Assembly: GCA_963758715.1 (NCBI GenBank)
Contig: CAVWWK010000006.1
Coordinates: 72,597-136,596 of the forward strand
Reading direction: 5' to 3'
Length of the DNA: 64,000 nt
Source: an uncultured Actinomycetes bacterium
GTDB taxonomy: Bacteria > Actinomycetota > UBA4738 > HRBIN12
Under the pieces are notes generated by a model that was given only the letters and a program-made list of their open reading frames with translations, did not search any database and had not been told where the DNA came from. A program made the translations under genes and the position numbers. Shown here piece by piece: positions 5,437 through 64,000 of this stretch (its first letter is position 1; each line of letters starts with the position of its first letter).

Positions 5437-5492
5437 CCGCTACGCCTTGGGCTACTTGAGCGACGTGCCACCGTGTGTGATCAGCTCCCTGT

Positions 5493-7443
<1,951 letters not shown>

Positions 7444-7568
7444 GCGACAGCCCTTCGAACACGGGACGTGCGGGGGGCGTGCGCGGGAAAGTTGCAGCCG
7501 AACAGCCCCGTCATTCTACCCGACGGGGGTGACCTCCGACCGGGTTTGGACCAGCGAAAAAGGGCCTT

Positions 7569-7911
7569 CTAGCTGCGGTTTCGCACGACGATCCGGATAC
7601 CGGTGATGCGGTCTCCGCCCAGCGCCTCGTCGGCCTTGCGGCGGATCTCCTCGGCCAGGAACGTGGCCTGCGCGCCCCACGGGCCGGTGGATACGCCGAC
7701 GGTCAGGACGCCTTCCTCCACGGCCACCGGAGCGGTCTCGGTGGCGAGGCGCTCGCCCACGATCGTGGGCCAGGCCGACGCCAGCTCGGCCACCGGCATC
7801 CCGCGGCTGAACACCTCGCGTGCGCATGAGGTCGTCGACGATGGCCCCGATGCTGACGGCGTCCTCGGAGCGGGACTCCTTCCGGCCGTCGAACCCCTTC
7901 GATCCCGGCAC
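7569..7911 (-). CDS. DUF721 / DciA-like protein (Rv0004 position), with one frame break near 7815
   Basis: GTG 7911 gives MPGSKGFDGRKESRSEDAVSIGAIVDDLMRT. The reading then shifts to EVFSRGMPVAELASAWPTIVGERLATETAPVAVEEGVLTVGVSTGPWGAQATFLAEEIRRKADEALG. It lies between recF and gyrB, as in other actinobacteria. Confidence 0.7.
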
Positions 7912-7912
7912 G

Positions 7913-9007
7913 TCAGGCCCCCCTCGGCGTCACCGCGCCGTCACGAACGTCCCAGATCGCGCGCGCGGTCGCCGGGACGTCGGCCTCGTCCGCGACCGAG
8001 ATGAAGACCTGCCCCTGCCGGGCGGCGAGACGCTCGCCGATCTGGTCGCGGCGCGTGGGATCGAGCGCGCTGAACGGGTCGTCGACCAGGAACACGGGCG
8101 GCTCCCCCAGCTCCTTGGTGACGGCGGCGGCCAGGCCCGCCCGCAGGCACAGCGCGGTGGCCCACGTCTCGCCGTGGGATCCGGCCGATCGCGCGCCCAT
8201 GTCCCGCACCGCCAGCGTCACGTCATCGCGATGAGGGCCGACGAGAGACGTGCGCCGCAGCAGCTCGTCGCGCCGGCGCTCCTCGAGCCGGGAACGGAAG
8301 GCATGCTCGAGGTCCGTGTCGTCCCACAGGTTCGGAGCGTAGGAGCATTCGAGCTCGTAGCCGGCGAGATGGGTGAACTCCTCGCTCGCGTGTGGGGCCA
8401 GTCGTTCGATCGCCTCGGCGCGAGCACCGATGACGGCCGAGCCCGCCTGGACCAACTCCTCGTCCCAGGCCTCGAGCCCGGCGGGCGTGCCGAGGCCGTC
8501 CCATTCCTTCAGCAGGCGGTTGCGCTGGCGAAGCGTGCGGTCGTAGGCGGTGAACAGCCCCTCCTTCAGCGGCCAGAGCGCGATGACGGCCTCGTCCATG
8601 AACGCTCGGCGCTTCGACGGGTCTCCGATCACGATCGGCAGATCGAACGGGCCGAACAGCACCGCACGCACGTGCCGACGGAGGTCGCGTTTGCGCCGGA
8701 CAGCCGACCGATCGACTTTGATGCGGCTGGCGCCCTGCGTGGGGATCTCGATCTCGACCAGCACACGCCCGTGCTCGGTCTCGAACTCCCCCCGCGTGTA
8801 GGCCGCGTCGGCGCCCTGACGAACCAGGGTCGCGTTCGCCGAGACTCGAGGCGATCCCAACGCGTAGAGGAAGTGGATCCCTTCCAACAGGTTGGTCTTG
8901 CCTTCGCCGTTCGGCCCGACGGCCACGATGAGCCCGTCGGGCATGGGCTCAAGCCTCGTCGAGCGATGGTTGCGGAAATCGCGCAGCTCGACCCACGAGA
9001 GCCGCAT
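7913..9007 (-). CDS. recF: DNA replication and repair protein RecF
   Basis: 364 aa: MRLSWVELRDFRNH...AVGPNGEGKTNLLEGI...(Walker A)...LVDDPFSALDPTRR. Located between dnaN and gyrB. Confidence 0.95.
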   Translation of the reverse strand: MRLSWVELRDFRNHRSTRLEPMPDGLIVAVGPNGEGKTNLLEGIHFLYALGSPRVSANATLVRQGADAAYTRGEFETEHGRVLVEIEIPTQGASRIKVDRSAVRRKRDLRRHVRAVLFGPFDLPIVIGDPSKRRAFMDEAVIALWPLKEGLFTAYDRTLRQRNRLLKEWDGLGTPAGLEAWDEELVQAGSAVIGARAEAIERLAPHASEEFTHLAGYELECSYAPNLWDDTDLEHAFRSRLEERRRDELLRRTSLVGPHRDDVTLAVRDMGARSAGSHGETWATALCLRAGLAAAVTKELGEPPVFLVDDPFSALDPTRRDQIGERLAARQGQVFISVADEADVPATARAIWDVRDGAVTPRGA

Positions 9008-9040
9008 CGCTACGGGGAAGCGGGCTCGGGAGCGGCCGTC

Positions 9041-10153
9041 CTAGGACACCGCCGCGGGCAGACGCACCGGCATCACCAGGTACGTGAACTCGTCGCCGTC
9101 CCCGCGCACGACGCCGGGCTTCAGCCCGTCGCGCACGTCCAACCGGATCGACTCGCCCGTCGCCGCAGCGAGGCCGTCCGCGAGGTACTGGGGGTTGAAC
9201 GCCACCGTCAGGTCGTCGCCCTCGTAACGCGCCTCCACGGTCTCGACCGCCTGGCCGAGGTCGGGGCTGGAGCTCGAGAGCTTCACGCCGAGGGCGTTGA
9301 ACTCGATGCGCACCGGCGTCGTGTCACGCGCCAGGAGTCCAACGCGCCGAACGGCGTCGAGCAACTGCTGCCGCGAGATCGTGAGCCTGCTCTCGTGTTG
9401 TTCGGGCAGGAGCTGGCGGTAGTTCGGGAACTCGCCTTCGATCAGGCGGGACGTGAGGGTGAGCTCGCCGATCCGGAACGCGACCTGCGACTCGTCGACG
9501 AAGACCTCGATCGTGGCCTTCTCGTCGGCGGCGGCCGCCCGGCCGGCCTCGCTGAGCGCGCGTTCGGGCACGATCGCCCTCCCCTCGCCGTCGGCGGTCG
9601 CCACGAGATCCCGCACCGCCAGCCGATAGGAGTCGGTCGCGACCATGACGACGCCTTCGCGGCTGACCTCGATCAGGACGCCGGTCAATACCGGGCGGGC
9701 CTCGTCGTGGGAAGCCCCCCGTGCCGCCTGGCTCACGGCCTCGGCGAAGGCGCCCGCTTCGGCGGTGATCTTCGTCCCGCTGGGCTCTTGCAACCCCGGG
9801 AAATCCTCGGCGGGCAGCAACCGAAGCGTGCCTTCGTACGCGGCGCAGCGGATGTGGGCCTGCGATTGATCGGTCTCGAAGTCGACGGGCGCCGCGGACA
9901 GCGACTTCACCGTGTCTCCGAGCAGCCGAGCCGGCACCAGTGCGATGCCGGGTTCGGACACCTGGACCTGGGTCGCGAGCCGCGCGGACACCTCGAGATC
10001 GGTGGTGATGAGCGTGAGGCGGCCGTCGTCGGTAGCTTCGATCAGCACACCGGTCAGCGCCGGGATTCCGGGCCGCGAGGAGACGCCCCGCTGGACGGTC
10101 TGCAGCGCCTCCGACAACGCGTCGCGATCACAACGGAACTTCACGGTGTCCAC
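9041..10153 (-). CDS. dnaN: DNA polymerase III beta sliding clamp
   Basis: 370 aa: MDTVKFRCDRDALSEALQTVQRGVSSRPGIPALTGVLIEA...FNPQYLADGL...YLVMPVRL. GTG start at 10153. Confidence 0.97.
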   Translation of the reverse strand: MDTVKFRCDRDALSEALQTVQRGVSSRPGIPALTGVLIEATDDGRLTLITTDLEVSARLATQVQVSEPGIALVPARLLGDTVKSLSAAPVDFETDQSQAHIRCAAYEGTLRLLPAEDFPGLQEPSGTKITAEAGAFAEAVSQAARGASHDEARPVLTGVLIEVSREGVVMVATDSYRLAVRDLVATADGEGRAIVPERALSEAGRAAAADEKATIEVFVDESQVAFRIGELTLTSRLIEGEFPNYRQLLPEQHESRLTISRQQLLDAVRRVGLLARDTTPVRIEFNALGVKLSSSSPDLGQAVETVEARYEGDDLTVAFNPQYLADGLAAATGESIRLDVRDGLKPGVVRGDGDEFTYLVMPVRLPAAVS

Positions 10154-10382
10154 CCCCTGATGCTTCTACTAGAAGAAGTATCCCAAGAACGGTTGTAGTA
10201 GGTCCTGTGGAAAGGTGCACGAGGGCACCGTTCCCGCAGCGTAGCGGCATTGTCCGACATGTGGACAACGGGTGGGGAAAACGTGTCGGTCCAGGGAGAA
10301 TCGTCCGGCGACGAGTCGTTGTCCACCGTCGATCCGGAGGTTATCCACAGCGCCGCGAGGGGTGTAGCCTGCGGCGTGGCGC
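10154..10382. other. oriC candidate: DnaA-box cluster in the dnaA-dnaN intergenic region
   Basis: Boxes seen: TGTGGAAA 10206-10213; TTGTCCGACA 10250-10259; TGTGGACAA 10260-10268 (reverse complement TTGTCCACA); TTGTCCACC 10319-10327; TTATCCACA 10341-10349. An AT-richer stretch sits at 10160-10200. Confidence 0.8.
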
Positions 10383-11825
10383 TCACGCGGCACCCCGGAC
10401 GCGGCCACGGATGATCCTCGTGAGGTCCTGGACCTGGCGGAACGTGGCGTCGCGCGCACGCATCTCGTCCTCGACCTTCTTGATGCCGTGCAGCACGGTC
10501 GTGTGGTCGCGCCCACCGAAGATCTCGCCGATCTTGACCAGGGAGAGGCCGGTGCACTCGCGGGTCAGGTACATCGCGATGTGTCGCGCCTGCGTGAGGG
10601 GCCTCGACCGAGACTTCGACATCAGGTCCGAGGTGGAGAGCTGGAAGTACTTCGCCGTCTCCTCCAGGATCAACGGCGGCGGGATCTCGTTCTCGGTCTG
10701 CGGGATCAGGTCCTGCAACGCGCGCTCGGCCAGCTCGATGTCGATCGCCTGGCCGGTGAGCTCGGACCAGGCGACCACGCGCACCAGGGCGCCCTCGAGC
10801 TCGCGGACCGACTGGTCGAACTTGGACGCGACGAACTCGATCACGGCAGGCGGAACGGTGATGTGGTCCCGCTCGGCTTTGAGCTGCAGGATCGCGATGC
10901 GTGTCTCCAGGTCGGGAGGCTGCACGTCGACGCAGAGCCCCCATCGGAACCGGCTGACCAGGCGATCCTCGAGGCCGCTCAGCTCGTGCGGCGGCCGGTC
11001 CGACGCGATCACGATCTGCTTGCCGGAGCCGTGCAGGTGGTTGAACGTGTGGAAGAACTCCGTCTGGGTCTCTTCACGCTTCGCCAGGAACTGGATGTCG
11101 TCGACCAGCAGCACGTCGACCTCGCGGTAGCGTTGGCGGAAGGCGTCGCCCCGCCGCTCTCGCACAGCCTTGATGAACTCGGTCACGAACTGCTCGGACG
11201 TCACGTACTTGAGGCGGAGGCTGGGCACGAGGCGATACATGTGATGGCCCACCGCGATCAACAGGTGCGTCTTCCCCAGTCCCACCCCGCCGTAGATGAA
11301 GAGCGGGTTGTAAGCCGTGGATGGGGGCGCCTCGGCGACGGCCATGGCGGCCGCGTGCGCGAACCGGTTGCTCGGGCCGGGCACGAAGGCGTCGAACGTG
11401 TAGTTGGGGAACGGCAGGCCGGGCGCACCCAGCGCTCGTCCACCGGGAAGGGCGGAGGGGTCGACGGGCGGCGGCGCGCCGATCGCCGCGTAGGAAGCCG
11501 GCGGAGCCGGGACGGGGTCGGTGACCGGGGCGTCCTCGACGCCGTTGCCGGTGCGCATGCCCTCGTCCACCTCGAGCTCGATCTTCACGGGGTGGCCCGC
11601 CGACTCGGCGGCGGCCTCCTCGATCAGGTGCAGGTGATGGTGCTGCAGGCGCTCCTTGACCAGGGGGCTGGGCACCGCGAGCGAGAGCGCATCGTCGCTC
11701 AGCGTCAGGGCCCGCACGTCGTCGAACCACATGACGACCGTGGTTTCGGGCAGGTCGGCCTTCGCCCGGTCCAGGACGTGCGCCCATGCTTGAAGTGCTT
11801 CATGTTCAGAGAACGCTACCGCCAT
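10383..11825 (-). CDS. dnaA: Chromosomal replication initiator DnaA
   Basis: 480 aa: ...NPLFIYGGVGLGKTHLL...LLVDDIQFL...(AAA+) and C-terminal HTH ...ARHIAMYLTRECTGLSLVKIGEIFGGRDHTTVLHG. Confidence 0.97.
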   Translation of the reverse strand: MAVAFSEHEALQAWAHVLDRAKADLPETTVVMWFDDVRALTLSDDALSLAVPSPLVKERLQHHHLHLIEEAAAESAGHPVKIELEVDEGMRTGNGVEDAPVTDPVPAPPASYAAIGAPPPVDPSALPGGRALGAPGLPFPNYTFDAFVPGPSNRFAHAAAMAVAEAPPSTAYNPLFIYGGVGLGKTHLLIAVGHHMYRLVPSLRLKYVTSEQFVTEFIKAVRERRGDAFRQRYREVDVLLVDDIQFLAKREETQTEFFHTFNHLHGSGKQIVIASDRPPHELSGLEDRLVSRFRWGLCVDVQPPDLETRIAILQLKAERDHITVPPAVIEFVASKFDQSVRELEGALVRVVAWSELTGQAIDIELAERALQDLIPQTENEIPPPLILEETAKYFQLSTSDLMSKSRSRPLTQARHIAMYLTRECTGLSLVKIGEIFGGRDHTTVLHGIKKVEDEMRARDATFRQVQDLTRIIRGRVRGAA

Positions 11826-12875: not shown

Positions 12876-14169
12876 ATGCTCGCGGCGTCTTCGATCCCCG
12901 TCGTCGGAGAGCTCTTCCAGGGACTGCTCGATGCTATCGGGTGGGTCCTGGCAGCGATCTACGACGTGGTGCCCAACTACGGCGCCTCGATCATCATCCT
13001 GACCCTGATCATCCGCTTCATCCTGTTCCCGCTCGGCGTGAAGCAGATCAAGTCGATGCAGCACATGCAGGCGATCCAGCCGAAGATCAAGGAGCTCCAG
13101 CGCAAGTACAAGGGGAACAAGCAGAAGACCCAGGAAGAGACGATGAAGCTGTACAAGGAGGCCGGCGTCAATCCGCTGGGCGGCTGCCTCCCGGTCCTGG
13201 CGCAGTTCCCTATCTTGATCGCGATGTACGCGGTGCTGCGCGCTCCCGGCCTCGTGGCCGTCGATGCGGCCGACCAGCCGGTGCCCGAGGGTTCGCAGGA
13301 GCAGGTCGCCGCGTACGAGGTCACGAACAACCACCTGCCGGTTGACAGCGAGCTGTTCGCCGACACGATCAACCACGAGGACACGGGCCTGGTCATCGTG
13401 AATCTGCAGTGTTCCGCCGCGCAGGCAGGCACGCAGGCGCCGATCAACGACTCCAACGGCCAGCAGGTGACGGCGGGGCTGCCTCTCGTGAATGACAGCG
13501 GGCAGGAGCTCGACTCTTTCACATCGCGGAGCACCATCGACTGCGGTGACAGCCCGATCGACAAGGTGGCGTACGTCTTGCTCCTGCTCCTGATGATCGG
13601 AGGCACGTTCTACCAGCAGCGGCAGATGCAGCGGGCCAGTCCCCCGAACGCGGCCTCTTCACAACAGCAGGCAATCATGAAGGTGATGCCGTTGTTCTTC
13701 GGCGTCATCGGTTGGACGTTCCCGGCCGGCCTGGTGCTGTACTGGACCGTCTCGAACCTGTTCCAGGTCGGCCAGCAGACGTTGATGCTGCGGGCCGGAC
13801 ACATCGGCCCCGATGCCCTCGACAAGCGCATGGCCGAACAGAAAGCCAAGCAAGAGGCGCGAGGCGATGCTCCGGCGAAGAAGGGCTTGATGTCCTCGTT
13901 GCTGGCGCGCGCGGAGGTCGAGCGGAAGCGGCGGGACGCAGGTGCCCAGAAGCCGAGCAGCGCCAAGAAGCCGACTGGCGGCAAGGGGCCAACGACCAAG
14001 GGTTCCGGCAGCCGAGGTGGATGCCGCCAAGGGCGGATCCAGCGGCAAGGGCAGTCGATCGAGCGGATCGAGCGGCTCAAAGGGCGGCGCCGGCGAAAGC
14101 AAGGGTGGCTCGCAGCCCAGGCGAAAGAAGCCGGGATCGGGAGGAGGCTCGGGTGGCTCGAGAGGCTGA
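12876..14169 (+). CDS. yidC: Membrane protein insertase YidC, with one frame break near 14000-14030 and an unusually long periplasmic loop
   Basis: ...IRFILFPLGVKQIKSMQHMQAIQPKIKELQRKYKGNKQKTQEETMKLYKEAGVNPLGGCLPVLAQFPILIAMY...MKVMPLFFGVIGWTFPAGLVLYWTVSNLFQVGQQ. The Gly/Ser/Lys tail continues in track frame 13942..14169. The 544-aa track ORF is a read-through into jag. Confidence 0.85.
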
Positions 14170-14821
14170 GGGTCGTGGTCCGACGGTGGACGAGGCGGTG
14201 GAGACCGCCTTGGACGAACTGTCTGCCACCCGGGACGACGTCGAGGTCCAGGTCATCCGTGAGGCAGATCAGGATGGGGGCGCCGTCGTGCGGGTCACCG
14301 TGCGCGACGCCTCGCCCGACGCCTCGCCCGATCTCCGTTCGGACGGCCCCGGGCTCGATGAGCTGGAGGAGCAGGCAGACGCCGGGGCGGACTTCCTGGA
14401 CGAGATGCTCTCGCACATGGGAATCGACGCCATCGCGGAGCCGAACCAGCAGGGTTCCCACATGTACGTCGACATCGTCGATGGGCCCGAAGAGGACATG
14501 TCGCTCCTGATCGGCCGCCATGGCCAGACGCTGGAAGCGATCCAGGAGCTGACCCGCATGGCGGTCGCCCGGAAGCTGGACCAGCGGGTGCGCATCATCG
14601 TCGACGTCGAGGACTACCGTAAACGTCGAGAATCCCGCCTGGAGGAGCATGCGCGGGAGCTCGCCGAGCGCGTCGCGAGCAGCGGCCGGGAGGAAGAGCT
14701 CGAGCCGATGAACTCCTACGAGCGGAAGCTCGTGCACGACGCGGCCGCCGAGGTGGACGGTGTCGAGACGATCTCGCGGGGCGAGGAGCCAGGCCGCTAC
14801 GTCGTCATCCTGCCCATCTAG
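14153..14821 (+). CDS. jag: Jag/KhpB-type RNA-binding protein (Jag_N, KH, R3H)
   Basis: GTG 14153 lies 5 nt after GGAGGAGG. VAREAEGRGPTVDEAVETALDEL...LLIGRHGQTLEAIQELT...MNSYERKLVHDAAAEVDGVETISRGEEPGRYVVI. Overlaps the yidC stop. Confidence 0.85.
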   Translation: MAREAEGRGPTVDEAVETALDELSATRDDVEVQVIREADQDGGAVVRVTVRDASPDASPDLRSDGPGLDELEEQADAGADFLDEMLSHMGIDAIAEPNQQGSHMYVDIVDGPEEDMSLLIGRHGQTLEAIQELTRMAVARKLDQRVRIIVDVEDYRKRRESRLEEHARELAERVASSGREEELEPMNSYERKLVHDAAAEVDGVETISRGEEPGRYVVILPI

Positions 14822-49370: not shown

Positions 49371-49812
49371 ATGCCGACCGCTCCCCCGCCACCGACGTCG
49401 CCGCCCTGGCCTCGAGCCTGCGCTTCAGCGTGACCCGACTCGCTCGGACCCTGCGCCGCGAGGCCGACACGGACGTCTCACCCACGCTGCTGTCCGCGCT
49501 GGCAACCGTCGAGTCTCACGGGCCCATGACGGCGGGCGACCTCGCCTCGCACGAGCAGGTGCGCAAACCGACGGTGACCCGGATCATGGCGTCGTTGGTC
49601 GACCGAGGCCTGGTCGAACGAACCTCCGACCCGGTTGACGGGCGCGTCGCGTGGATCCAGATCACCCGCAGGGCCGGAGGCTCCTGCAGCGGGTGCGCCG
49701 CCGTCACGCGGAGTACCTCTCCCGGCGCATCAGGCGCCTGGAGCCCGGCGAGTTCGCCACCTTGGAGCGTGCCGCCGCCATCCTCGACCGCATCACGGAA
49801 CGGCCGGCATGA
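49371..49812 (+). CDS. MarR-family transcriptional regulator, with two frame breaks in C-runs (49383-49387 and 49665-49667)
   Basis: MPTAP then ATDVAALASSLRFSVTRLARTLRREADTDVSPTLLSALATVESHGPMTAGDLASHEQVRKPTVTRIMASLVDRGLVERTSDPVDGRVAWIQIT then PQGRRLLQRVRRRHAEYLSRRIRRLEPGEFATLERAAAILDRITERPA*. Adding one C to each run restores a single ORF. Its stop overlaps the MFS ATG (ATGA). Confidence 0.8.
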
Positions 49813-51096
49813 GCCCGCGGGTCACCGAGGCCTTCAACCGCACCCTGTCGTCGGTGCGCACGTCCCGGAACTTCCGTCTCTACCTGACGGGTCACTTCGT
49901 CTCGGCGATCGGGATGTGGATGAACTTCACCGCGTCGGCGTGGCTGGTCCTGCGGCTCAGCGACAGCGGGACGGCCCTGGGCGCCAACGTCGCGCTCTAC
50001 TTCCTGCCCGTCCTGCTCCTGGGCGCGATCGGCGGCGTCCTTGCCGACCGGTTCGACAAACGGCGGATCCTGGTCTGCACGCAGATCGCCTACGCCGTCG
50101 TGGCGCTCGCGTTGTGGCTCCTGGTCGCCACCGAGGTCGCGCAGCTGTGGATGGTCTACGCGCTCTCGCTGGCCTCCGGGGTCGTCACGGCCTTCGACAA
50201 CCCCACCCGCCAGAGCTTCTACGCCGAGATGGTCGGAGAGGAGCACGTCCGCAACGCCGTCAGCCTGAACAGCGCGGTCTTCACCGGCTCCCGCGTGGTG
50301 GGGCCCGCCGTGGCCGGGCGTGCTCATCGCCACCGTCGGCATCGCGGTCTGCTTCCTCATCGACGCGCTGTCCTACATCGCCGTGCTCACCGCGCTGCTG
50401 CTGATGAGGACGAACGAGCTGCACCCACAGGCGAGGTCCACGCGCGAACGGGGTCACCTGGTTGCCGGGCTCAAGTACGTGTGGCGAACCGACGACCTGC
50501 GCCGGCCCCTGCTCGCCATGGCCGTGGTGTTCACGCTGGCGTTCAACTTCGCGGTCTTCGTTCCCCTCCTCGCCGAGCGCACGTTCGATGGCGACGCGGG
50601 AACGTTCGGGATGCTTTCGGCGCTGGCCGGCGTCGGGTCGTTCCTCGGCGCCATGGTCATGGCGAGCCGTTCGACGGTGCCCCGCCTGCGCGACCTCGCG
50701 CTCTGGTCGGTGGGGTGTGGGGTGGGCCTGGCCCTCCCCGGATTGGTTCCGTCGCTCTGGATGGCGGCCGTGACGATGGTGCCGATGGGATTCACGATCA
50801 TGGCGTTCATGATCACGGGCAACACGATGCTGCAGCTGAAGTCGGTGCCGCAGGCCCGCGGCCGGGTCATGGCGCTCTACGGCATCGTGTTCCTCGGCTC
50901 GACGCCGATCGGCGCCCCGATCGCCGGCCTCGTCGGCGAGCACCTCGGGGCGCGGGTCGGGTTCGTGTTGAGCGGACTGGTCGCCGCAGGGCTCGGCCTC
51001 GCTCTCATCGCGGTCGCCAGGATCCGCGCGGATCGTGCGGCCGGACTCCCGCAGGCGGTCGATGGCGAGGCGGAGCCGGTGGTCGCGTCCCGCTGA
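49809..51096 (+). CDS. MFS transporter (enterobactin-exporter/DUF894-like), with one frame break near 50315
   Basis: MSPRVTEAFNRTLSSVRTSRNFRLYLTGHFVSAIGMWMNFTASAWLVL...AVFTGSRVVGPAVAG shifts to VLIATVGIAVCFLIDALSYIAVLTALLLMR... (track 50320..51096). Confidence 0.8.
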
Positions 51097-51210
51097 ACCC
51101 CCGGGACACTGTCACTCGGATCGAGATGCGACCGAAGGCGGTACGGGAGTCGAAGAAGCCGCATTCCCGCCCGCCTTCAGTCACCGTGAGCCCGCGAGGG
51201 GGATCCCGGG

Positions 51211-51402
51211 CTACGTCCAGAGCGAACCCGTGAGGGTCGCGGCAGCAACGGTCCGGTCGTCGGGTCGGACGCCGTTCGGCCCGAGGTTCCGCCCCTCGGT
51301 GAACGCGAGCATCGCGGCGTACCAGCCGGGCTCGTAGGCGATGCTGCTGCACGTGAGGCAGCGGCTCACCGTCCCGGCGGGGTGCTCCCCGTGCTCGCTC
51401 AT
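51211..51402 (-). CDS. Possible small protein (63 aa), hypothetical
   Basis: An inner ATG of track ORF 51211..51504, preceded by GGAAGGACGGAG. MSEHGEHPAGTVSRCLTCSSIAYEPGWYAAMLAFTEGRNLGPNG.... No recognisable family. Confidence 0.25.
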   Translation of the reverse strand: MSEHGEHPAGTVSRCLTCSSIAYEPGWYAAMLAFTEGRNLGPNGVRPDDRTVAAATLTGSLWT

Positions 51403-56533: not shown

Positions 56534-57202
56534 TCAGCCGGGTGACAAGGGGCGGTGCCAACCGGAGATGTAGCCCGGTGTCGGCACCCCGTCCTTCAGG
56601 AGCGGGTCGTCGATCGGCTCGCCGGGCACCGTGGTGAGCGGCAGGATCCCGGCCCAGACATCGAGGTCGTAATCCTCGTCGAGATCGACGGCCTGGCCGG
56701 TGCTGACCTTCGCCGACGCCTCGGCGAGTGGAACCTTGAGGAACAGCGTCTGGCGGAGCTCATCCTCGCTGGGCAGGCGCGCATCCTCACCGCGACCGGG
56801 GGCGACGTGGTTCGTGATCGCCTTGAAGACGATGCGCAATTCGTCCAGGTCGGTGACTTCGGTCGGTTCGCCATAGACCACGACCGAGCGGTAGTTCATC
56901 GAGTGCTCGAACATCGAACGCGCGAACCGGATGCTGTCGATGATCGTGACGGCGATCGCGAGGCTCGCCCCGTCGCGCAGCGTGCGGAGGGTCTGCGAAG
57001 CCCGCGACCCGTGGATGTAGAGCGTCTCGCCGATCCGGGCGTGGATGGTGGGGATGACGCGAGGATCGCCGTCCTGCGCCGTGTAGCCGACGTGGCAGAT
57101 GAGGGCCTCGTCCAAGATCGCGTTGAGGGCATCGCGTTCGTACACCCCGAGCTCCGGGAGTCGGCGGACCCGGGTCCGCGGGCTGGGCGCGTCGGTGGAC
57201 AT
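56534..57202 (-). CDS. Pyridoxamine 5'-phosphate oxidase-like FMN-binding split-barrel protein
   Basis: ...RRLPELGVYERDALNAILDEALICHVGYTAQDGDPRVIPTIHARIGETLYIHGSRAS... Confidence 0.8.
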   Translation of the reverse strand: MSTDAPSPRTRVRRLPELGVYERDALNAILDEALICHVGYTAQDGDPRVIPTIHARIGETLYIHGSRASQTLRTLRDGASLAIAVTIIDSIRFARSMFEHSMNYRSVVVYGEPTEVTDLDELRIVFKAITNHVAPGRGEDARLPSEDELRQTLFLKVPLAEASAKVSTGQAVDLDEDYDLDVWAGILPLTTVPGEPIDDPLLKDGVPTPGYISGWHRPLSPG

Positions 57203-57400: not shown

Positions 57401-57933
57401 TCAGCCGCCCTCCGGTTCCACGCCTCGAGCCTCGAGGACCTGCGCCCGCTGGAAGGCGTAGCCCACCATCCACGTCGGGTCGACGCGACAGAGCACGATG
57501 CTCTCGCCCCATGAGAACGGCGACGACCCGTAGTGCGTCGTCAGATGCCCGGCGATCTCGTCGAAGTCTTCGTGTCCGGACTCCAGGAACTCCACTCTGC
57601 CGTGGGTGAAGATCGCGACCTCCTCGCCTTCCACGCACGCCGCGCTCACGGCCGGCCGTGCGCGGAGGTGGCGCACCTTCGCCGCCGACCCGCTCGTGGT
57701 GAACACCCAGCGGCCGTGAAGGAAGTGTCCGTCGACGGCGCTGATCCGAGGCTCGCCCTCCGCGGTTGTCGTGGCCACAGCCAAGACCCGCATCCCCGCA
57801 TCAACGCCGCGATGTCGCGTGCTCGCAGCGTGCGCGAATCATCGATGATCCCACGGAGGTGCTCGGTTGCCCGGGCGTGCGACGCGTCGAGCAACGCCTG
57901 CAGCCGATCCAGTTCCTGCTCGGTCTCCAGCAT
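57401..57933 (-). CDS. PPOX-class (F420/FMN) split-barrel protein, with one frame break in a C4/G4 run at 57794-57797
   Basis: MLETEQELDRLQALLDASHARATEHLRGIIDDSRTLRARDIAALMRG shifts to MRVLAVATTTAEGEPRISAVDGHFLHGRWVFTTSGSAAKVRHLRARPAVSA.... Adding one G (cgg ggg atg cgg gtc) joins the frames. Confidence 0.7.
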
Positions 57934-57972: not shown

Positions 57973-58185
57973 TCAGTGCTCATCCCAGTGATCGCGGTGG
58001 AACCAGTGCCGATGACCGTCGTGCACGTAGTCGGTGTGGTCGTCGTGCTCCACCGCCTCGTGACCGCAGCCTTCACCGTGCTCGTGATCGTCGTGGTCCT
58101 CGTGATGGTGGTGTTCCTGTTCCTCCTCGAACGGCGAGGGGAACGCGTTCGGCTCTTCCCACATCGACGGCGGGATCTTCGACAT
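57973..58185 (-). CDS. Histidine- and acid-rich small protein (70 aa), probable metal-binding
   Basis: MSKIPPSMWEEPNAFPSPFEEEQEHHHHEDHDDHEHGEGCGHEAVEHDDHTDYVHDGHRHWFHRDHWDEH has 16 His, 21 Asp+Glu and 1 Cys. SD GGAAGGAG lies 7 nt upstream. It sits 56 nt downstream of the ECF S-component gene. Confidence 0.7.
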   Translation of the reverse strand: MSKIPPSMWEEPNAFPSPFEEEQEHHHHEDHDDHEHGEGCGHEAVEHDDHTDYVHDGHRHWFHRDHWDEH

Positions 58186-58241: not shown

Positions 58242-59088
58242 TCAACCGGCGTCGAGGCGCATTCGTCGCGCCGCCCGGTCGAGCGCCGCGAGGAGCGGAC
58301 GCCCCAGGAGCAACACCAGCGCCGCGTTGCCCACCGCGCGGAACGTGTCCCACGCGAACGACGTTGCTGCGTAGAACGCCAGGTAGTGCCGCACGTTCTC
58401 GCCCAGGCCCGCGGCCGGGTCCCAGCTGATCGCGGACCCGCGACCAGGAAGGGCCACGACCACAGGTTCATGATCGCGCCGAACAGATAGCCGCACGACC
58501 GCTCCGTACGCTGCGAGCGATCCGAGACGCACCCTCCACGAGCTCCTGGGCAGCAGTCCGGCGCCCATGCCCACCCAGCCGACCGCCACCATCTGGAACG
58601 GCAGCCAAGGGCCGAGCCCTCCGAGGAAAAGCCCGCTCGCGAAGGTTCCCACCGTCCCAAGCAGGAACCCGAACCCCGGTCCGAAGGCGTTGCCCGCCAC
58701 CAGCACCACGATGAACATCGCGCTGAAGCCGGCGACGAACCCCGGCAATCGGAGCGCCACCATCGCCGCGCCCAAGACCCCGAGCAGGGCGACGGCCTTC
58801 GGTCCCAGGCCTCCGCGACCGAGCTCGACGAACAGCACCGAGCCCAGGCACACGAGCAGGATCGCCAGCACCAGCGGGCCGTCGGTCTCGTGGTTCTCGT
58901 TCACGCCGGGCGCCAAGGGAAGCGACGAACGGCCACAGGAACGCCAGCAGGCCGAGGAGGTTGACGACGATCAGAACCGCCAGCCGCACGCGGGTCCGCT
59001 CACGGTATGGCGCGCGAGGGCGCCCGCGGGAGCGATCCTGCGTCGTTGGGTCGGTCGCGGCCGTGTCGGGTCGTTCGACGTCGATCAC
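58242..59088 (-). pseudogene. ECF-transporter S-component-like membrane protein, needing about 3 frame changes
   Basis: GTG 59088 overlaps the ecfA stop (GTGA). VIDVERPD...RVRLAVLIVVNLLGLLAFLWPFVASL / APGVNENHETDGPLVLAILLVCLGSVLFVELGRGGLGPKAVALLGVLGAAMVALRLPG...AAYG / YLFGAIMNLWSWPFLVAG / SAISWDPAAGLGENVRHYLAFYAATSFAWDTFRAVGNAALVLLLGRPLL. Confidence 0.65.
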
Positions 59089-60666
59089 GCCAACGCCTCC
59101 GCGACCTGCTCGGGAGTGAGCCATCCCGGTCCGAACACCCGGGTCATCTGTGGTGCGAACACGGTGGAGTCACCGAGCACGATGCCGGGGTCGCCGTCGG
59201 CGACGACCTCTCCGCCCGCGAGCATGACCACGCGGGTGGCCACGGCCGCCGCGAGCTCCACGTCGTGGGTCGCCACGATCGCGACGCCACCGTCGCCGGC
59301 ATGTCCGCGTAGGAAGCGCGCGAGGCGTTCCTTCGCGTCGGGGTCGAACCCTCGGGTGGGCTCGTCCATCAGGAGCACCGGCGTCAGGCCGGCCGCGACG
59401 GCCGCGGTCGCCACCAGCAGCCGCTGCCCCGCGCTGAGAGGTCGCGAGGATGCCGAGCCGCGAGGCCGACGGATGCCGAGCGCGTCGAGCACCGGCTCGG
59501 GGGCGGCGCCAAGGCCCCGCGCCTTCAACGTGGCCCGGACCTCGCCGGCGACGGTGTCGGCGAACAGGATCGAGTCCGGATCCTGCGGACACAGCCCCAC
59601 GTCGATGCCGGGTTCGGGAGGATGACCGTCGACGGCGACCTCACCCCTCGTCGGCTCGTGAACGCCCGCGAGCGTGCGCAGCAGCGTGGACTTGCCGGCG
59701 CCGTTGCGTCCCATCAGCGCGACGATCTCACCGGCGCCGACGCGAAGGTCGATCCCGCGGAGCGCGGGGACGTCGCCGTAGCCGCGCGTCGACACCCCGG
59801 AGCTGGATCAGGGCGTGGCCGCTCGACGGCGCACGAGTCCGGGCGGGAGCGCCGAGCGAGCGCTCCGCCCATGCGACGGGCATCGCGAACCGTGAGGGGC
59901 ACGGGATCCCACCCGGCGAGCCGTCCGAGCCGAGCGACCGGAGGCCCGATCGCCAGGCGATGCGATCACCGTCGGCTGGGTCGCCGACACACACCTGGCC
60001 GGCCTCGAACCCGAGCGCGCCAGGTCGACCCAGCCGGCGACCCGCTCCAGCCGGTGTTCGGCGAGCAGCACGGTCATGCCCGTGGTCGTGCACCAGCCGC
60101 TGCAGCGCGGCCATCACGTCCTCTGCTCCCTGCGGGTCGAGCTGCGAGGTGGGCTCGTCGAGCACGAGGATCCGCGGGCCCGGCGGCGAGCGCCGCGGCG
60201 ATCGCGACGCGCTGACGCTCGCCGCCGCGAAGCGTGCGGACGCTCCGTGCCCGCAGAGCCTCGAGGTCGAGCAGGTCGAGCATCTCCTCGACCCGCCGTC
60301 GCATGTGCGCGGGATCGACGCCCAGGTTCTCCATGCCGTACGCGAGCTCGTCCTCGACCCGATCCAGCACGAACGAGGCCTCGGGGTCCTGCGGCACGAA
60401 CGCGACGACGTCCGCGAGCCGGCGCGGCGGATGCGGCGAGCGTGTCGCGGCCGTCCACCGTGACCCGGCCTCGAAGGTGCCGCCCGTGAAGTGCGGCACC
60501 AGTCCGTTGGCCGCGCGGAGGAAGGTCGACTTGCCGGCGCCCGTCGGTCCGATCGCCAGCGCGAAGGTGCCGTCGGCGATCGTCCAGAGTCGACGTCGCG
60601 CAAGGCGTCGGCTGATCCGGCTCCGGGATACGTGAAGGCACCCGATCGAAGCGACAGCGCCGTCAT
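59085..60666 (-). pseudogene. Fused double ECF/CbiO-type ABC ATPase (EcfA-EcfA'), needing at least 8 frame changes in its first two-thirds
   Basis: MTALSLRSGAFTYPGAGSADALRDV / TIADGTFALAIGPTGAGKSTFLRAANGLVPHFTGGTFE / GRVTVDGRDT / PRRLADVVAFVPQDPEASFVLDRVEDELAYGMENLGV...GGERQRVAIAAALAAGP / RILVLDEPTSQLDPQGAEDVMAALQRLVHDHG / MTVLLAEHRLERVAGWVD / ... The second half is intact (track 59085..59795): ALRGIDLRVGAGEIVALMGRNGAGKSTLL...LSAGQRLLV...LLMDEPTRGFD. Confidence 0.8.
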
Positions 60667-61509
60667 GGTTCGCTCGGCGGCGTCGGGTGAGGAAACCCGG
60701 CAGGGCGAGCAGCCCGATCGCGCGCCAGCAGCACGGGATCGACCGGGCGGCCACGCGAGCGGCGTACGTGCGACGGGTGCAGCACCGCCCAGCCGCCGAA
60801 CGAGGCGCGACAGGAAGATCGCGGCCGCCGCCACGGGCGCAGGCGGCGATGCGCCGCGGCCGGCGCCGACCACCGCTGGGGCCGGTACCGCGATCCGCCG
60901 GCCGCGGCCGTGTCCCGCGCGCGTCCATCGCTCTCGGCGAGGGTGACCGCGCTCCTCCATCCCGGACTCGAGCACGGGAACCGCGAGCGCCGGGAGCGAG
61001 CGCAGCGGTGAGACGTGGATGCCACGCAACCGTTGCGCCTCGCGCACGCGCGCGACGCTCGCGACGGTCCGCGGCGCGATCGAGAGCGCGAGCGCGGCGG
61101 CGAGCGCAGGCTCGTGGAGCCGCCGTGGCGCGAGGCGCACCACGCCGAAGGGGTCGGTCACCGCGTTGAAGGTCCCGAAGACGACGAGGAGCGTCGCGAG
61201 CCGGGCGCCCTCGAGGAAGGCGAAGGCGACGCCTGCCGGCGTCACGGTCCGAGGAGCACGAGCGACGTGCGGAGCGCCAGCGTGACGAGCCCGGCGACCA
61301 GGAACAGGCGGAACGAGCGCGCGTCGGGACCCGTCGACGCGCTGCGTCGCGTACACGAACCACGACACGGCGACGAGCAGCAGCAGGTAGAAGGGGTTCG
61401 TCGTGGTGAACGCGACCAGCCCGGCGCACGTCGCCCACGCGATCCAGGCCGCCGGATGCACGGTGCTCAGTCGCCTCCTCGAGCGATCTGTCGGCGGCGC
61501 ACGAGCCAT
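60663..61509 (-). pseudogene. ECF transporter transmembrane component EcfT/CbiQ-like, needing at least 4 frame changes
   Basis: HPAAWIAWATCAGLVAFTTTNPFYLLLLVAVSWFVYATQRVDG / PDARSFRLFLVAGLVTLALRTSLVLLGP / VTPAGVAFAFLEGARLATLLVVFGTFNAVTDPFGVVRLAPRRLHEPALAAALALSIAPRTVASVARVREAQRLRGI...LAVPVLESGMEE / AVTLAES.... The last frame ends in a TGA overlapping the ecfA ATG (ATGA at 60663-60666). An alternative start is GTG 61461. Confidence 0.7.
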
Positions 61510-62377
61510 CCGCCAGCGCCGAACACCCCGATCGCGACGAGGGCGGCGATCGCGCCGGCCGGCGGCCCGCCCCCGCTCTGTTCACGGTGACGCCCGCGGC
61601 GAGCTCCGCCCCCGGCGACGCCTGGACGACCGATCCGTCGACAGAGGGCTCGGCGGGAGTGCGGCCCTCGTTCCCGGAGCGTTCGTCGTCGGGTTCCCGT
61701 CGGTCGCCGCTTTCGGTGACGGGTTCGGCGATCCACTGGCGCCGGTCGGGCCGGTGGGCGCTTCGCCGTCGCTTCCCGATCCGCCTCCCGGGCTCCCACC
61801 GCCGCCCGATCCGCGCCGAGCCGCCGCCCGAGCCGCCGCCGCCTCCGTTACCGGGAGGCGATGCGGCGGCGGGTGAGGTCGGATCCGCCTCCTCACACAC
61901 GTCGTTGAAGGCCAGGGCGGGCGGCGAGGGTGTGTGGCGCCCGAATCGCCCGAACCCCAGACCCACCCGTCCATGTCACCGTCCTCGACCGACGCGGAGC
62001 CGCGCCCGACCCGGCCCAGCTCCACCCGCCCGAACCGTTCCCGTGCCAGTAGCCCCAGAAGTCCGGGTACTCGCCGAAGCAGTCGCCTCCGCTCGCGCCC
62101 ACGCCGGCAGCTGACAGACGGCCTGGCCACCGAACCCCAGCCGGTACTGCAGCCCGTACTGCTGGCCCGCCAGCTCGATGAGCCGGAGCCCGCTGACGCT
62201 GGACGCGTCGAGGGAGACGCAGTAGGTCGTGGTCTGGGTCCCGGTGCCGACCACCAGGGCCGGCATGCGGCGCGCCCCGTGCCTCGGCTGCGCAGACGGC
62301 GGCCGAGCCCGCGATGGCCGGCGCGAGGACCGGAGCGGCCAGGATGAGGCCGAGGCCGAGGCTCGGAGGCGGCGCAT
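61467..62377 (-). pseudogene. Secreted DUF4430-like (transcobalamin C-terminal-domain-like) protein with a Gly/Pro/Ser linker and a C-terminal TM anchor, needing at least 6 frame changes
   Basis: MRR / PPSLGLGLILAAPVLAPAIAGSAAVCA (signal) / ALVVGTGTQTTTYCVSLDASSVSGLRLIELAGQQYGLQYRLGFGGQAVCQL / AGVGASGGDCFGEYPDFWGYWHGNGSGGWSWAGSGAA / SVEDGDMDGWVWGSG / low-complexity linker / PPAGAIAALVAIGVFGAGGWLVRRRQIARGGD*. Confidence 0.6.
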
Positions 62378-62381
62378 GGCT

Positions 62382-63377
62382 CTAGCAGGCCGCCGTCGGT
62401 GGGACCTGCCGTGAGACGGGTCCGCCGAGCGGGAACGGGATGCGCAAGAGGCCGGGTATCGCGCCGATCGTTGCTCCGGGGTCGGGTCGCCCGTGACGTC
62501 GCCGTCGCACGTGTACGCCCACGCTCCGCAGCGCGGGTGCTGCAGGCGCCGCAGCGACCTGAGACCGCCCGCGGGGATCGCTGTTCGCCGGCCACGAAGG
62601 CCTGGAGCACCAGGCCGGTGGAGTTCGCGTCGGTCACCAGGAAGGCCCTCGAATACGCCCAGCCGCCGTGGTCGGGGTCGCGGACCGTGTCGAAGAAGTC
62701 GAACGGATCGTCGCCCCAGCCAGTGCGGCCAGCTTCCTCCAGCGCCTGCACCGCGTAGGCCGTGGTGTTCGAGTCCGACGTGAAGAAGTCGTTGCCCGAA
62801 CCGTCGTCACAGTGCTGGTCGTCGGTGCCCGGGGCGAACGGGGCATCGTAGGCCCAGCCGCCGTCGGGACACTGGGCATCCAGCAGCCACCTCGTCACCC
62901 GTGCGGCCGGCCTGACGCCGGCCGACTCGATCGCCAGGACGCGAGCGCCTGGTCGAAGACCGCTGCCGTGCCGATGTGGCCGTTGCCGCCGAGCTGGATC
63001 GGATCTGTCGAACGAGGTTCGTGTCGGCGAACGTGCGCGGGTTCCGTCCTGCCGCGGCCACCGCCATGACGCACCTTGGCCTGCAGGCCGACGCCTGTGA
63101 CGTCGCCGGCGAGCGTCTGCCGTCTCAGGTAGGCGAGCCCCGACCGCACGAGCGGTCTGCCCAGCCCGGTGGCCACGAAGGCCAGGACGGCGTCGGACGT
63201 GGAGCCGATCGGGGAGAAGGCCGGGATCGAGCCGTTGGGGCTGCTGCATACCGCGAGGAAACCGACGCCGCGCTCCGCTCGATCCGATCGGTGATCGCCG
63301 ACGCCGAGGCGGGCAACGCCACGACGAGCGGCGAACGAAACGATGAAGGCGGCGGTCCGCCGAACCTTCGGGCCCAT
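62382..63377 (-). pseudogene. Secreted prenyltransferase/squalene-cyclase-repeat (alpha/alpha-toroid) protein, first gene after the riboswitch, needing at least 5 frame changes
   Basis: SD GGAAGGAG lies 5 nt before ATG 63377. MGPKVRRTAAFIVSFAA.../ERGVGFLAVCSSPNGSIPAFSPIGSTSDAVLAFVATGLGRPLVRSGLAYLRRQTLAGDVTGVGLQAKV / AMAVAAAGRNPRTFADTNLVRQI / DPIQLGGNGHIGTAAVFDQALA / VLAIESAGVRPAARVTRWLLDAQCPDGGWAYDAPFAPG...DSNTTAYAVQALEEAG...DPDHGGWAYSRAFLVTDANSTGLVLQAFVAGEQ / AIPAGGLRSLRRLQHPRCGAWAY... / ...IGAIPGLLRIPFPL...*. Confidence 0.6.
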
Positions 63378-63479
63378 GGGGGCTCCTTCCCGGGCGTCTC
63401 GCGCGCCCTTACGGAACGTCCGCCGCTGGATCGACGTCGGGCCCGAGCGGGCCGGCGGCCGCTCCCCATCCTCGAGGGA

Positions 63480-63660
63480 TCGTTCAGCCGTGCGTCACGC
63501 AGGGCGGCCTGGCTCGCCCACGCGGATCCTGGATCGGATCGAGCGTGACCTACAGTTGCGGGACAGCGCCGGAATCCGACCGGCTTCGCCTCCGCGACGC
63601 GTTGTGAGCCGCACGCTAGCAGAGTCGGTTGCGCGGACGCCACCGGCGTGGAACCGGCGG
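63480..63660 (-). promoter_or_regulatory. Cobalamin (B12) riboswitch in the 5' leader of the 63377 operon
   Basis: The minus strand reads ...GGAGGCGAAGCCGGTCGGATTCCGGCGCTGTCCCGCAACTGTAG (63587-63550). This matches the conserved core GGGAAgCCGGTGngAAtTCCGGcgCtGtCCCGCAACtGTa. A B12-box-like GAGCCAGGCCGCCCTGC follows at 63515-63499. A GGGCG-N7-CGCCC hairpin abuts the SD. Confidence 0.75.
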
Positions 63661-63777
63661 GAAGTTCGGACTTTCGGCGTAGGCGCTGGGGGTATCGCGC
63701 CCTAGGGCCGAGGGTATAGGTTCGTCGCGGAACCCAAGAACCCGGGCCCACAACCTATCCCAAGGAGAATCCTCCCC

Positions 63778-64000
63778 ATGACCCGATACCGCTGCGTACA
63801 TCCGGCTCACGCATACAGCGGCGGGCCCGCGTCGGTCGATGTGACCGCCCAGGTCCGGCTGGAGCGCGAGTTCCTCCCTCGAGAGTCTGCCTACCTCGCC
63901 GACTCCGGCGACGTGATCCGCAGGGTGCGTGAGCTGTCCGACTCCGACCCGGTGGATCGCGATGCCGCGGTTCGCCGGATCCTGACCGGAACCACCTCGC
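63778..64000 (+). CDS. Hypothetical protein, 5' part only (runs off window end)
   Basis: AAGGAG lies 11 nt before ATG 63778. MTRYRCVHPAHAYSGGPASVDVTAQVRLEREFLPRESAYLADSGDVIRRVRELSDSDPVDRDAAVRRILTGTTS..., GC3-rich. Divergent from the riboswitch operon. Confidence 0.45.
   Translation, partial: MTRYRCVHPAHAYSGGPASVDVTAQVRLEREFLPRESAYLADSGDVIRRVRELSDSDPVDRDAAVRRILTGTTS

Follow-up and report, generated by a model that had tools for sequence, protein, structure and literature searches.

A cobalamin-riboswitch-led operon in uncultured Actinomycetota encoding an ECF transporter and a candidate split transcobalamin-like capture pair

The DNA analysed here, referred to as the window, is a 64,000-nucleotide (nt) stretch of contig CAVWWK010000006.1 from an uncultured Actinomycetes bacterium (assembly GCA_963758715.1, positions 72,597 to 136,596 of the forward strand). 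On its minus strand, between 58242 and 63600, it carries a cobalamin (vitamin B12) riboswitch followed by genes for an exported α/α-toroid protein, an exported and membrane-tethered β-fold protein, the energy-coupling factor (ECF) transporter subunits EcfT and fused EcfA-A′, and an ECF S component, in that order. A first-pass annotation, made from the sequence alone, had read these six elements on the same strand and in the same succession as one tightly packed, riboswitch-led operon, and this outline is borne out, with every element present (amino acids, aa; all features on the minus strand; basis of each assignment in brackets):

63613-63618 (-): -10-like hexamer TAGCGT, some 12 nt before the first helix of the aptamer (read from the sequence)
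63492-63600 (-): cobalamin riboswitch aptamer, compact variant (the match to Rfam RF00174 itself spans 63508-63584)
63378-63491 (-): expression platform and ribosome-binding site GGAAGGAG, 6 nt before the ATG (sequence)
62383-63377 (-): exported α/α-toroid protein, about 331 aa after correction, N-terminal signal peptide (frameshift-aware alignment with P0001, L001 and L002; 7 frameshifts)
61467-62377 (-): exported membrane-tethered β-fold protein, about 300 aa (8-11 frameshifts)
60663-61461 (-): EcfT (CbiQ family) transmembrane component (9-11 frameshifts)
59088-60666 (-): fused EcfA-EcfA′ ATPase, about 525 aa (12 frameshifts)
58242-59091 (-): ECF S component, about 282 aa, GTG start (3-4 frameshifts)
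57973-58185 (-): candidate sixth gene, encoding an intact 70-aa protein with very many His, Asp and Glu residues (list of open reading frames, ORFs)

Two of the four gene junctions are overlaps, ATGA between ecfT and ecfAA′ and GTGA between ecfAA′ and the S gene, whereas the other two are 5-nt gaps, so that the overlaps initially described for the junctions hold for half of them. As written, the window copy of the operon cannot be translated: none of the five genes can be read through in a single frame, and the frame with high G+C content at third codon positions (GC3) jumps every 100 to 300 bases. Frames were stitched by hand, and intact ortholog proteins were then aligned to the DNA by frameshift-aware dynamic programming. 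Pfam searches of the raw three-frame translations returned only ABC and S-component pieces, the toroid and β proteins being invisible before stitching. The His-rich ORF lies on the same strand, 56 nt beyond the stop codon of the S gene, and tblastn recovers this protein immediately behind the S gene in 16 orthologous loci; a Pfam scan of the 70-aa protein gave no match, and a place in the operon as its sixth gene, perhaps with a metal-binding role, is conceivable.

Conservation of the operon and its riboswitch

Scanning one genome per GTDB species for orthologs yielded 59 loci (labelled with L numbers), nearly all from entries titled as uncultured Actinomycetota or Actinomycetes metagenome-assembled genomes (MAGs), the closest of them sharing 76% nucleotide identity with the window. 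Toroid, β protein, EcfT, EcfAA′ and S component follow one another in identical order in 51 of 58 distinct loci, with the S gene present in 51 of 51, and the remaining seven loci are cut by contig ends. A cobalamin riboswitch, its structure supported by covariation, lies upstream of the operon in every locus for which upstream sequence is available. The flanking genes vary from locus to locus, which indicates that the five genes move as a unit, and riboswitch, toroid, β-protein and ECF genes show the strict co-occurrence in intact orthologous loci that the first-pass annotation had proposed to look for. The upstream neighbour is a different gene in L001 and in L002.

Two distant versions of the system, L063 (5682-11526; Candidatus Promineofilum, Chloroflexota) and L064 (5446-11769), run in the order RF00174, toroid, SCO2322-type β protein (short, at 200-206 aa), S component, CbiQ and fused ABC ATPase, directly followed in both by a gene for a PduO-type cob(I)alamin adenosyltransferase (PF01923). 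The S component is called before EcfT in L064, and L063 has a gap at that position without a called gene. Their RF00174 matches are full-length (43.8 bits in L063, 71.5 bits in L064), and the linked adenosyltransferase provides independent support for a corrinoid substrate.

In the window itself the RF00174 covariance model (clan CL00101) gives a single match, at 63508-63584, scoring 32.0 bits where the gathering score is 31.5 and covering model positions 51-163 of 189. Taken alone this score is marginal, and the predicted B12 riboswitch was therefore tested through the orthologs, which support it. In L001-L003 a partial match of the same kind precedes the first gene, a further 8 of 12 Actinomycetota loci reach the Rfam gathering score, with up to 95 bits (two of them with RF01482), and orthologous leaders score between 31.5 and 95 bits with RF00174, the match being full-length in L032 and L049 as well as in the two distant loci. 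In the window and in 55 distinct loci a conserved core motif recurs at a distance of 128-232 nt before the toroid gene. On an alignment of 43 leaders RNAalifold predicts 24 base pairs, 12 of them with compensatory changes, and finds a helix closing the 5′ and 3′ ends of the element; 97% of cells in the alignment pair, compared with 33-47% when the partners are slid, and none of 500 shuffles attains the observed pairing and covariation values. The fold of the single window leader is no better than that of its shuffles. Outside the aptamer the core motif has a second match at 63825, which carries two mismatches and lies inside the divergent upstream gene, and which we attribute to chance.

The riboswitch types differ among loci. 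Most orthologous operons use a compact variant like that of the window, canonical RF00174 elements are found in L031 (5745-5891) and L041 (5763-5904), at 92 and 95 bits, and RF01482 elements in L052 (5710-5857) and L055 (5734-5877), at 56 and 73 bits. These different types may reflect different corrinoid selectivity.

As for how the element acts, a scan of the leader for intrinsic terminators before the GGAAGGAG ribosome-binding site found none, which suggests that control is exerted at translation initiation, and translational control by the riboswitch is the likely mode. A scan of the leader for the σ70 consensus promoter also found nothing; the hexamer TAGCGT just upstream of the aptamer is plausibly a -10 element, and the block TGCTAGCGT at the same place is conserved in the alignment of 43 leaders.

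The exported proteins and the ECF module

Both exported proteins begin with a signal peptide of the basic, hydrophobic, Ala-X-Ala type, as read from their sequences. The toroid gene contains the motifs CPDGGWAYD and DHGGWAYS, and its stitched 331-aa product matches intact 333-aa homologs end to end, at best with 71% identity over 100% of the length. Scoring of 8,000 candidates returned 360 homologs, nearly all of them "hypothetical proteins" of 330-340 aa. The initial description of a secreted α/α toroid with squalene-cyclase-type repeats agrees with three lines of evidence: a 54-sequence profile matches the repeats of squalene-hopene cyclases in the PDB at 5e-11; the AlphaFold2 model is an α/α toroid with a mean predicted local distance difference test (pLDDT) score of 93; and Foldseek returns as best matches class II terpene cyclases, drimenyl diphosphate synthase and prenyltransferase β subunits (E 1e-7 to 1e-5). 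Transcobalamin (4zrp_A) follows at rank 50, with E 7e-5 and a template-modelling (TM) score of 0.50.

Since the toroid is structurally closer to terpene cyclases and prenyltransferases, a catalytic role has to be weighed, in which the toroid would be a terpenoid-cyclase-like or hydrolase-like enzyme acting on an envelope or corrinoid substrate and only the β protein would bind the ligand. The Foldseek ranking and the match of the profile to squalene-hopene cyclase repeats favour such a role. Set against it, the DxDD motif is not conserved in the consensus or the invariant columns of the 54 homologs (read by eye), export by the signal peptide takes the protein away from prenyl diphosphate pools, the toroid is strictly paired with the β protein and sometimes fused to it, and the transcobalamin α domain belongs to the same fold class. 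We regard an enzymatic toroid as rather improbable. In the window and in 51 loci toroid and β protein are two separate genes. Among individual homologs, P0361 (529 aa) apparently has the toroid and then the β domain in one chain, P0352 (587 aa) has β and then toroid, and P0249 (623 aa, equal to 333 + 290) is maybe a read-through artefact.

The second gene contains FWGYWHG...WSWAGSGAA and SASVEDGDMDGWVWG in two different frames. Its corrected product consists of a signal peptide, a 130-aa domain of the transcobalamin-β/DUF4430 fold, a stalk of about 100 aa rich in Gly, Pro and Ser, and a C-terminal transmembrane helix, the latter two just as the first-pass annotation had described them, and the AlphaFold2 model correspondingly shows a confident domain at residues 35-165 (pLDDT >90), a disordered stalk and a helix at 271-297. 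The top 16 Foldseek matches of the domain are 3u7z (DUF4430) and transcobalamin β domains, of which the isolated-domain entries have TM scores of 0.75-0.77 at a probability of about 1.0; 3u7z ranks first (E 6.5e-4, probability 1.0, TM score 0.76 normalised to the target), and the transcobalamin-family entries 5no0, 2bb5 and 2bb6 match at about 0.77. In its fold, then, this is the DUF4430-like protein of the first-pass annotation, whereas at the level of sequence families it is not: Pfam DUF4430 (PF14478) gives no match at E up to 1 with the stitched protein or four intact homologs, and most intact homologs carry a precomputed match to PF28005 (SCO2322) instead. Profile searches of the PDB with the β protein and with the S component returned low-complexity or chance matches only. 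With a β-domain profile, 2,461 representative clusters are reached at E up to 0.001, of which 1,095 remain at E up to 1e-10.

Against the curated NCBIfam models the toroid scores 109 bits with NF053823 (SCO2321; cut-off 300) and the β protein 34 bits with NF040672 (SCO2322; cut-off 85), and both are thus relatives rather than members of families that themselves have no functional name. In the papers searched we found no functional study of SCO2321-SCO2325, nor one linking toroid or β proteins of this kind to B12, and searches for DUF4430 together with cobalamin returned nothing on bacterial systems. Homologs of the β protein (alignment A1) share five invariant cysteines, an odd number, of which C29 lies just after the signal peptide, and toroid homologs (alignment A2) have a nearly invariant cysteine at the C-terminus; on the strength of these alignments an intermolecular disulfide, lipidation or a role as cobalt ligand are possible uses of such residues. 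Further invariant residues are W75, G76, Y77, H79, W86, W88 and W106 in the β protein and W165, G174, G175, W176, D179 and W241 in the toroid; an intact ortholog of the pair is found in L001 at 8001-9873.

The remaining three genes encode the transporter, T, A-A′ and S in one operon, and form a dedicated ECF module (group I); all three had been named correctly in the first reading. Stitched EcfT matches Pfam CbiQ (PF02361) with 27.7 bits at a cut-off of 25, the L001 ortholog scores only 16.3 bits, and precomputed CbiQ matches are present in other loci; EcfT identity is about 70% of aligned residues (183/259 with L001, 190/263 with L002). EcfA-A′ has two ABC_tran domains and 74-75% identity to its L001 and L002 counterparts, the fused orthologs measure 523-527 aa, and the best NCBIfam matches of an ortholog are ECF_ATPase_1/2, below their equivalog cut-offs, with cbiO matching as well. 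The S component matches PF12822 (ECF_trnsprt) with 39.7 bits at a cut-off of 30.7, and the alignment of its orthologs (A4) is very conserved.

The CbiQ and cbiO-type matches, together with the frequent control of cobalt transporters by B12 riboswitches and the small His-rich protein encoded behind the operon in the window and in 16 loci, would also fit import of cobalt for B12 synthesis in the manner of CbiMNQO, with the exported proteins serving an unrelated envelope role. Such a transporter is most improbable here, however: neither CbiM nor CbiN accompanies the genes, the membrane subunit belongs to the generic S components (PF12822), both exported proteins are encoded alongside without exception and their folds are those of a corrinoid carrier, and linkage to an adenosyltransferase fits the salvage of a finished corrinoid.

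Ligand assignment and known systems

Taken together, the comparative and structure-prediction results make it probable that the locus is a cobalamin-riboswitch-controlled operon for the uptake of corrinoids (the vitamin B12 family) equipped with an extracellular, split transcobalamin-like capture pair. When B12 is plentiful inside the cell, the riboswitch would shut the operon off, probably at translation initiation; when it is scarce, the toroid and the tethered β domain would enclose a corrinoid on the outer side of the membrane in the way that transcobalamin's two domains do, and the ligand would then be handed to the S component and imported by the ECF module at the expense of ATP. The corrinoid-capture device feeding an ECF transporter that the first-pass annotation had suggested is thus a reasonable proposal, given the folds, the strict co-occurrence and the adenosyltransferase in L063 and L064, and is one that we, too, infer. 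More tentatively, the toroid and stalk-tethered β domain may constitute a non-covalent "split transcobalamin" that delivers surface-captured corrinoids to the S component, an arrangement that would provide ECF transporters with a substrate-binding partner outside the cytoplasm and would point to a bacterial origin of the animal two-domain B12 carriers.

Several observations weigh against this assignment. The RF00174 score in the window exceeds its threshold by just 0.5 bit with partial model coverage; Pfam DUF4430 and Cobalamin_bind match neither exported protein; the toroid is nearer to terpene cyclases and prenyltransferases than to the transcobalamin α domain; the S component has no sequence relation to CbrT or to any solved S component in PDB searches with the single sequence and with a 16-sequence profile; and the sole experimentally studied system of this architecture, Lsa1836-1840 of Lactobacillus sakei, is tied to heme rather than B12 (10.1101/864751).

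That system deserves closer comparison. Verplaetse et al. describe lsa1836-1840 as genes for an S component, a fused A-A′ ATPase, a T component and two signal-peptide proteins modelled as transcobalamin β and α domains; the locus was automatically annotated as cobalamin transport, its deletion impaired heme accumulation and complementation restored it, and the authors proposed that the exported pair scavenges a tetrapyrrole outside the cell and passes it to the S component (10.1101/864751). Compared by description only, the window operon has the same five-part architecture (S, A-A′, T, and separate exported α-like and β-like proteins) and differs from the L. sakei locus in that the latter has a heme assignment and a Firmicute host, with no B12 riboswitch reported and no long stalk or transmembrane tether described for its β protein. 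The operon is therefore a riboswitch-marked, stalk-tethered actinobacterial variant of an architecture described once before, and the claim of an uncharacterised architecture holds in part only, a system so built having already been described, deleted and complemented in L. sakei (10.1101/864751).

By analogy with Lsa1836-1840, the actinobacterial system might import heme or another non-corrin tetrapyrrole, its link to the riboswitch being incidental or a sign of tetrapyrrole cross-talk. The L. sakei deletion mutant, which lost heme accumulation until complemented, and the modelling of Lsa1839 and Lsa1840 as transcobalamin β and α domains (10.1101/864751) speak for this possibility. So does a PNPOx-family gene that is syntenic downstream in many loci. 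Some members of the PNPOx superfamily are heme-degrading enzymes. We nevertheless hold heme import to be highly unlikely in the face of a cobalamin riboswitch before the operon wherever upstream DNA exists, in at least two phyla, of the linked cob(I)alamin adenosyltransferase in L063 and L064, and of the operon itself, in which no heme-responsive regulator or heme oxygenase is seen. Judged by comparative genomics, the predicted ligand is better supported here.

The eukaryotic carriers transcobalamin, intrinsic factor and haptocorrin resemble the capture pair in combining an α6/α6-type toroid with a small β domain (TM scores of 0.50 for the toroid and about 0.77 for the β domain). Unlike in transcobalamin, the two halves in the window are separate polypeptides of which one is tethered to the membrane, sequence similarity is not detectable, and the toroid is closer to terpene cyclases. 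To our knowledge the ECF class is defined by having no extracytoplasmic substrate-binding partner, and we know of no extracellular accessory proteins for CbrT systems. Known B12 routes relevant to monoderms comprise BtuFCD, ECF-CbrT, BtuM and mycobacterial BacA, and B12 uptake in Gram-positives and other monoderms is poorly mapped; in the Gram-negative Bacteroides, BtuG is a β-propeller. Corrinoid ECF transporters are known as ECF-CbrT or CbrTUV (Santos et al. 2018, PMC5997447; Rodionov et al. 2019, PMC6593275), and CbrUVT appears as a single dedicated gene set (PMC6593275, PMC8123684), and the window operon resembles them as an ECF importer linked to B12 with a dedicated module beside its S component, although that S component has no sequence match to CbrT. 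Bacteroides BtuG and BtuH offer a parallel of another kind, namely riboswitch-controlled surface corrinoid-binding proteins that feed a transporter (PMC6143338, PMC8941943); they differ from the pair described here in their unrelated folds and in feeding the TonB-dependent outer-membrane protein BtuB of Gram-negatives.

The operon family looks like a widespread, riboswitch-marked alternative B12 route in soil Actinomycetota, with related forms in Chloroflexota and with relatives in Streptomyces suggested only by NCBIfam family names. Should the exported pair indeed bind corrinoids together, it would rank as the first accessory to capture substrate for an ECF transporter with a defined vitamin ligand and would supply transcobalamin, intrinsic factor and haptocorrin with an evolutionary precursor; it would also call for a fresh look at whether heme is the L. 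sakei system's main role. For genome annotation, a specific role could be given to five genes now labelled "hypothetical" or named generically.

Frameshifts and surroundings of the window copy

The window copy contains about 42 frameshifts of one or two bases across the five genes, that is, about 8 per kb over 5.2 kb. A crude hidden-Markov segmentation by GC3 could not follow the frames of the operon and showed a local excess of frame switches. In-frame stops and large gaps or deletions are absent from the corrected frames over some 1,750 codons, GC3 is kept at about 0.9, and identity to the orthologs, about 60-75% over aligned residues depending on the gene, is comparable to that between intact orthologs. 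Damage that is confined to indels, with neither nonsense codons nor larger deletions, favours consensus error over natural decay, and the same defect is seen in three other copies from long-read "MFD" MAGs (genes at about 6000-11250), which contain 17 (L047), 12 (L060) and 7 (L059) frameshifts and no premature stop while the adjoining PNPOx gene is clean in all three; assembly error is thus again the likelier cause. The essential gyrB gene is also broken in the same contig, which speaks for indel errors in the assembly: in its two parts (5493-7443, -), split near 6662, HATPase_c falls in one ORF and the DNA_gyraseB, Toprim and C-terminal domains in another. Two further genes show similar breaks, an MFS_3 transporter (49635-51233, +) split near 50312, with profile positions 11-160 and 161-392 in different frames, and an adh_short gene at about 20550 (-) that stops at profile position 125 of 195, suggestive of another frameshift.

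The alternative is that the operon is a true, decaying pseudogene cluster in this genome, with B12 uptake lost and the frameshifts no artefact of sequencing. Their confinement to the five genes, next to an intact His-rich ORF and intact PNPOx genes, and their position away from homopolymers are what one would cite in its favour, and their density within the operon, about 40-fold that of its flanks and tied to neither homopolymers nor GATC sites, leaves real inactivation some probability. Set against the indel-only pattern with its preserved GC3 and ortholog identity, the broken gyrB and the three other damaged long-read copies, we consider decay unlikely; the frameshifts are, judging from these sequence comparisons, most probably local consensus errors of long-read metagenome assembly, and the window copy probably represents a functional operon distorted by errors. 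Dense local indel errors of this kind can evidently hide a whole operon in long-read MAGs from gene callers. Two candidate sources of error were examined and set aside: basecalling at homopolymers, the longest homopolymer near most sites being 2-3 bases, and methylation at GATC, which occurs 11.1 times per kb in the rest of the window and 9.5 times per kb in the operon. The operon is also the most GC-rich part of the window (71-75%); it seems systematically hard to assemble, and high GC is one possible cause.

Just downstream of the operon lie two genes of the PNPOx superfamily (56534-57202 and 57401-57793, both -; Pyridox_ox_2 and PNPOx_N), and synteny of the Pyridox_ox_2 gene with the operon recurs in many loci, where an MFS transporter gene often comes next. 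Upstream, a divergent gene opens at 63777 (+) with an ATG preceded by an AAGGAG site and is cut off by the end of the window (63777-64000), and the riboswitch sits in the 400 nt that separate this gene from the toroid gene. Elsewhere in the window are a tRNA gene (810-884, -; 74 bits), a probable gyrA beside gyrB (2980-7443, -) and yidC followed by a jag/R3H gene (12876-14821, +), a set typical of the surroundings of a bacterial replication origin.

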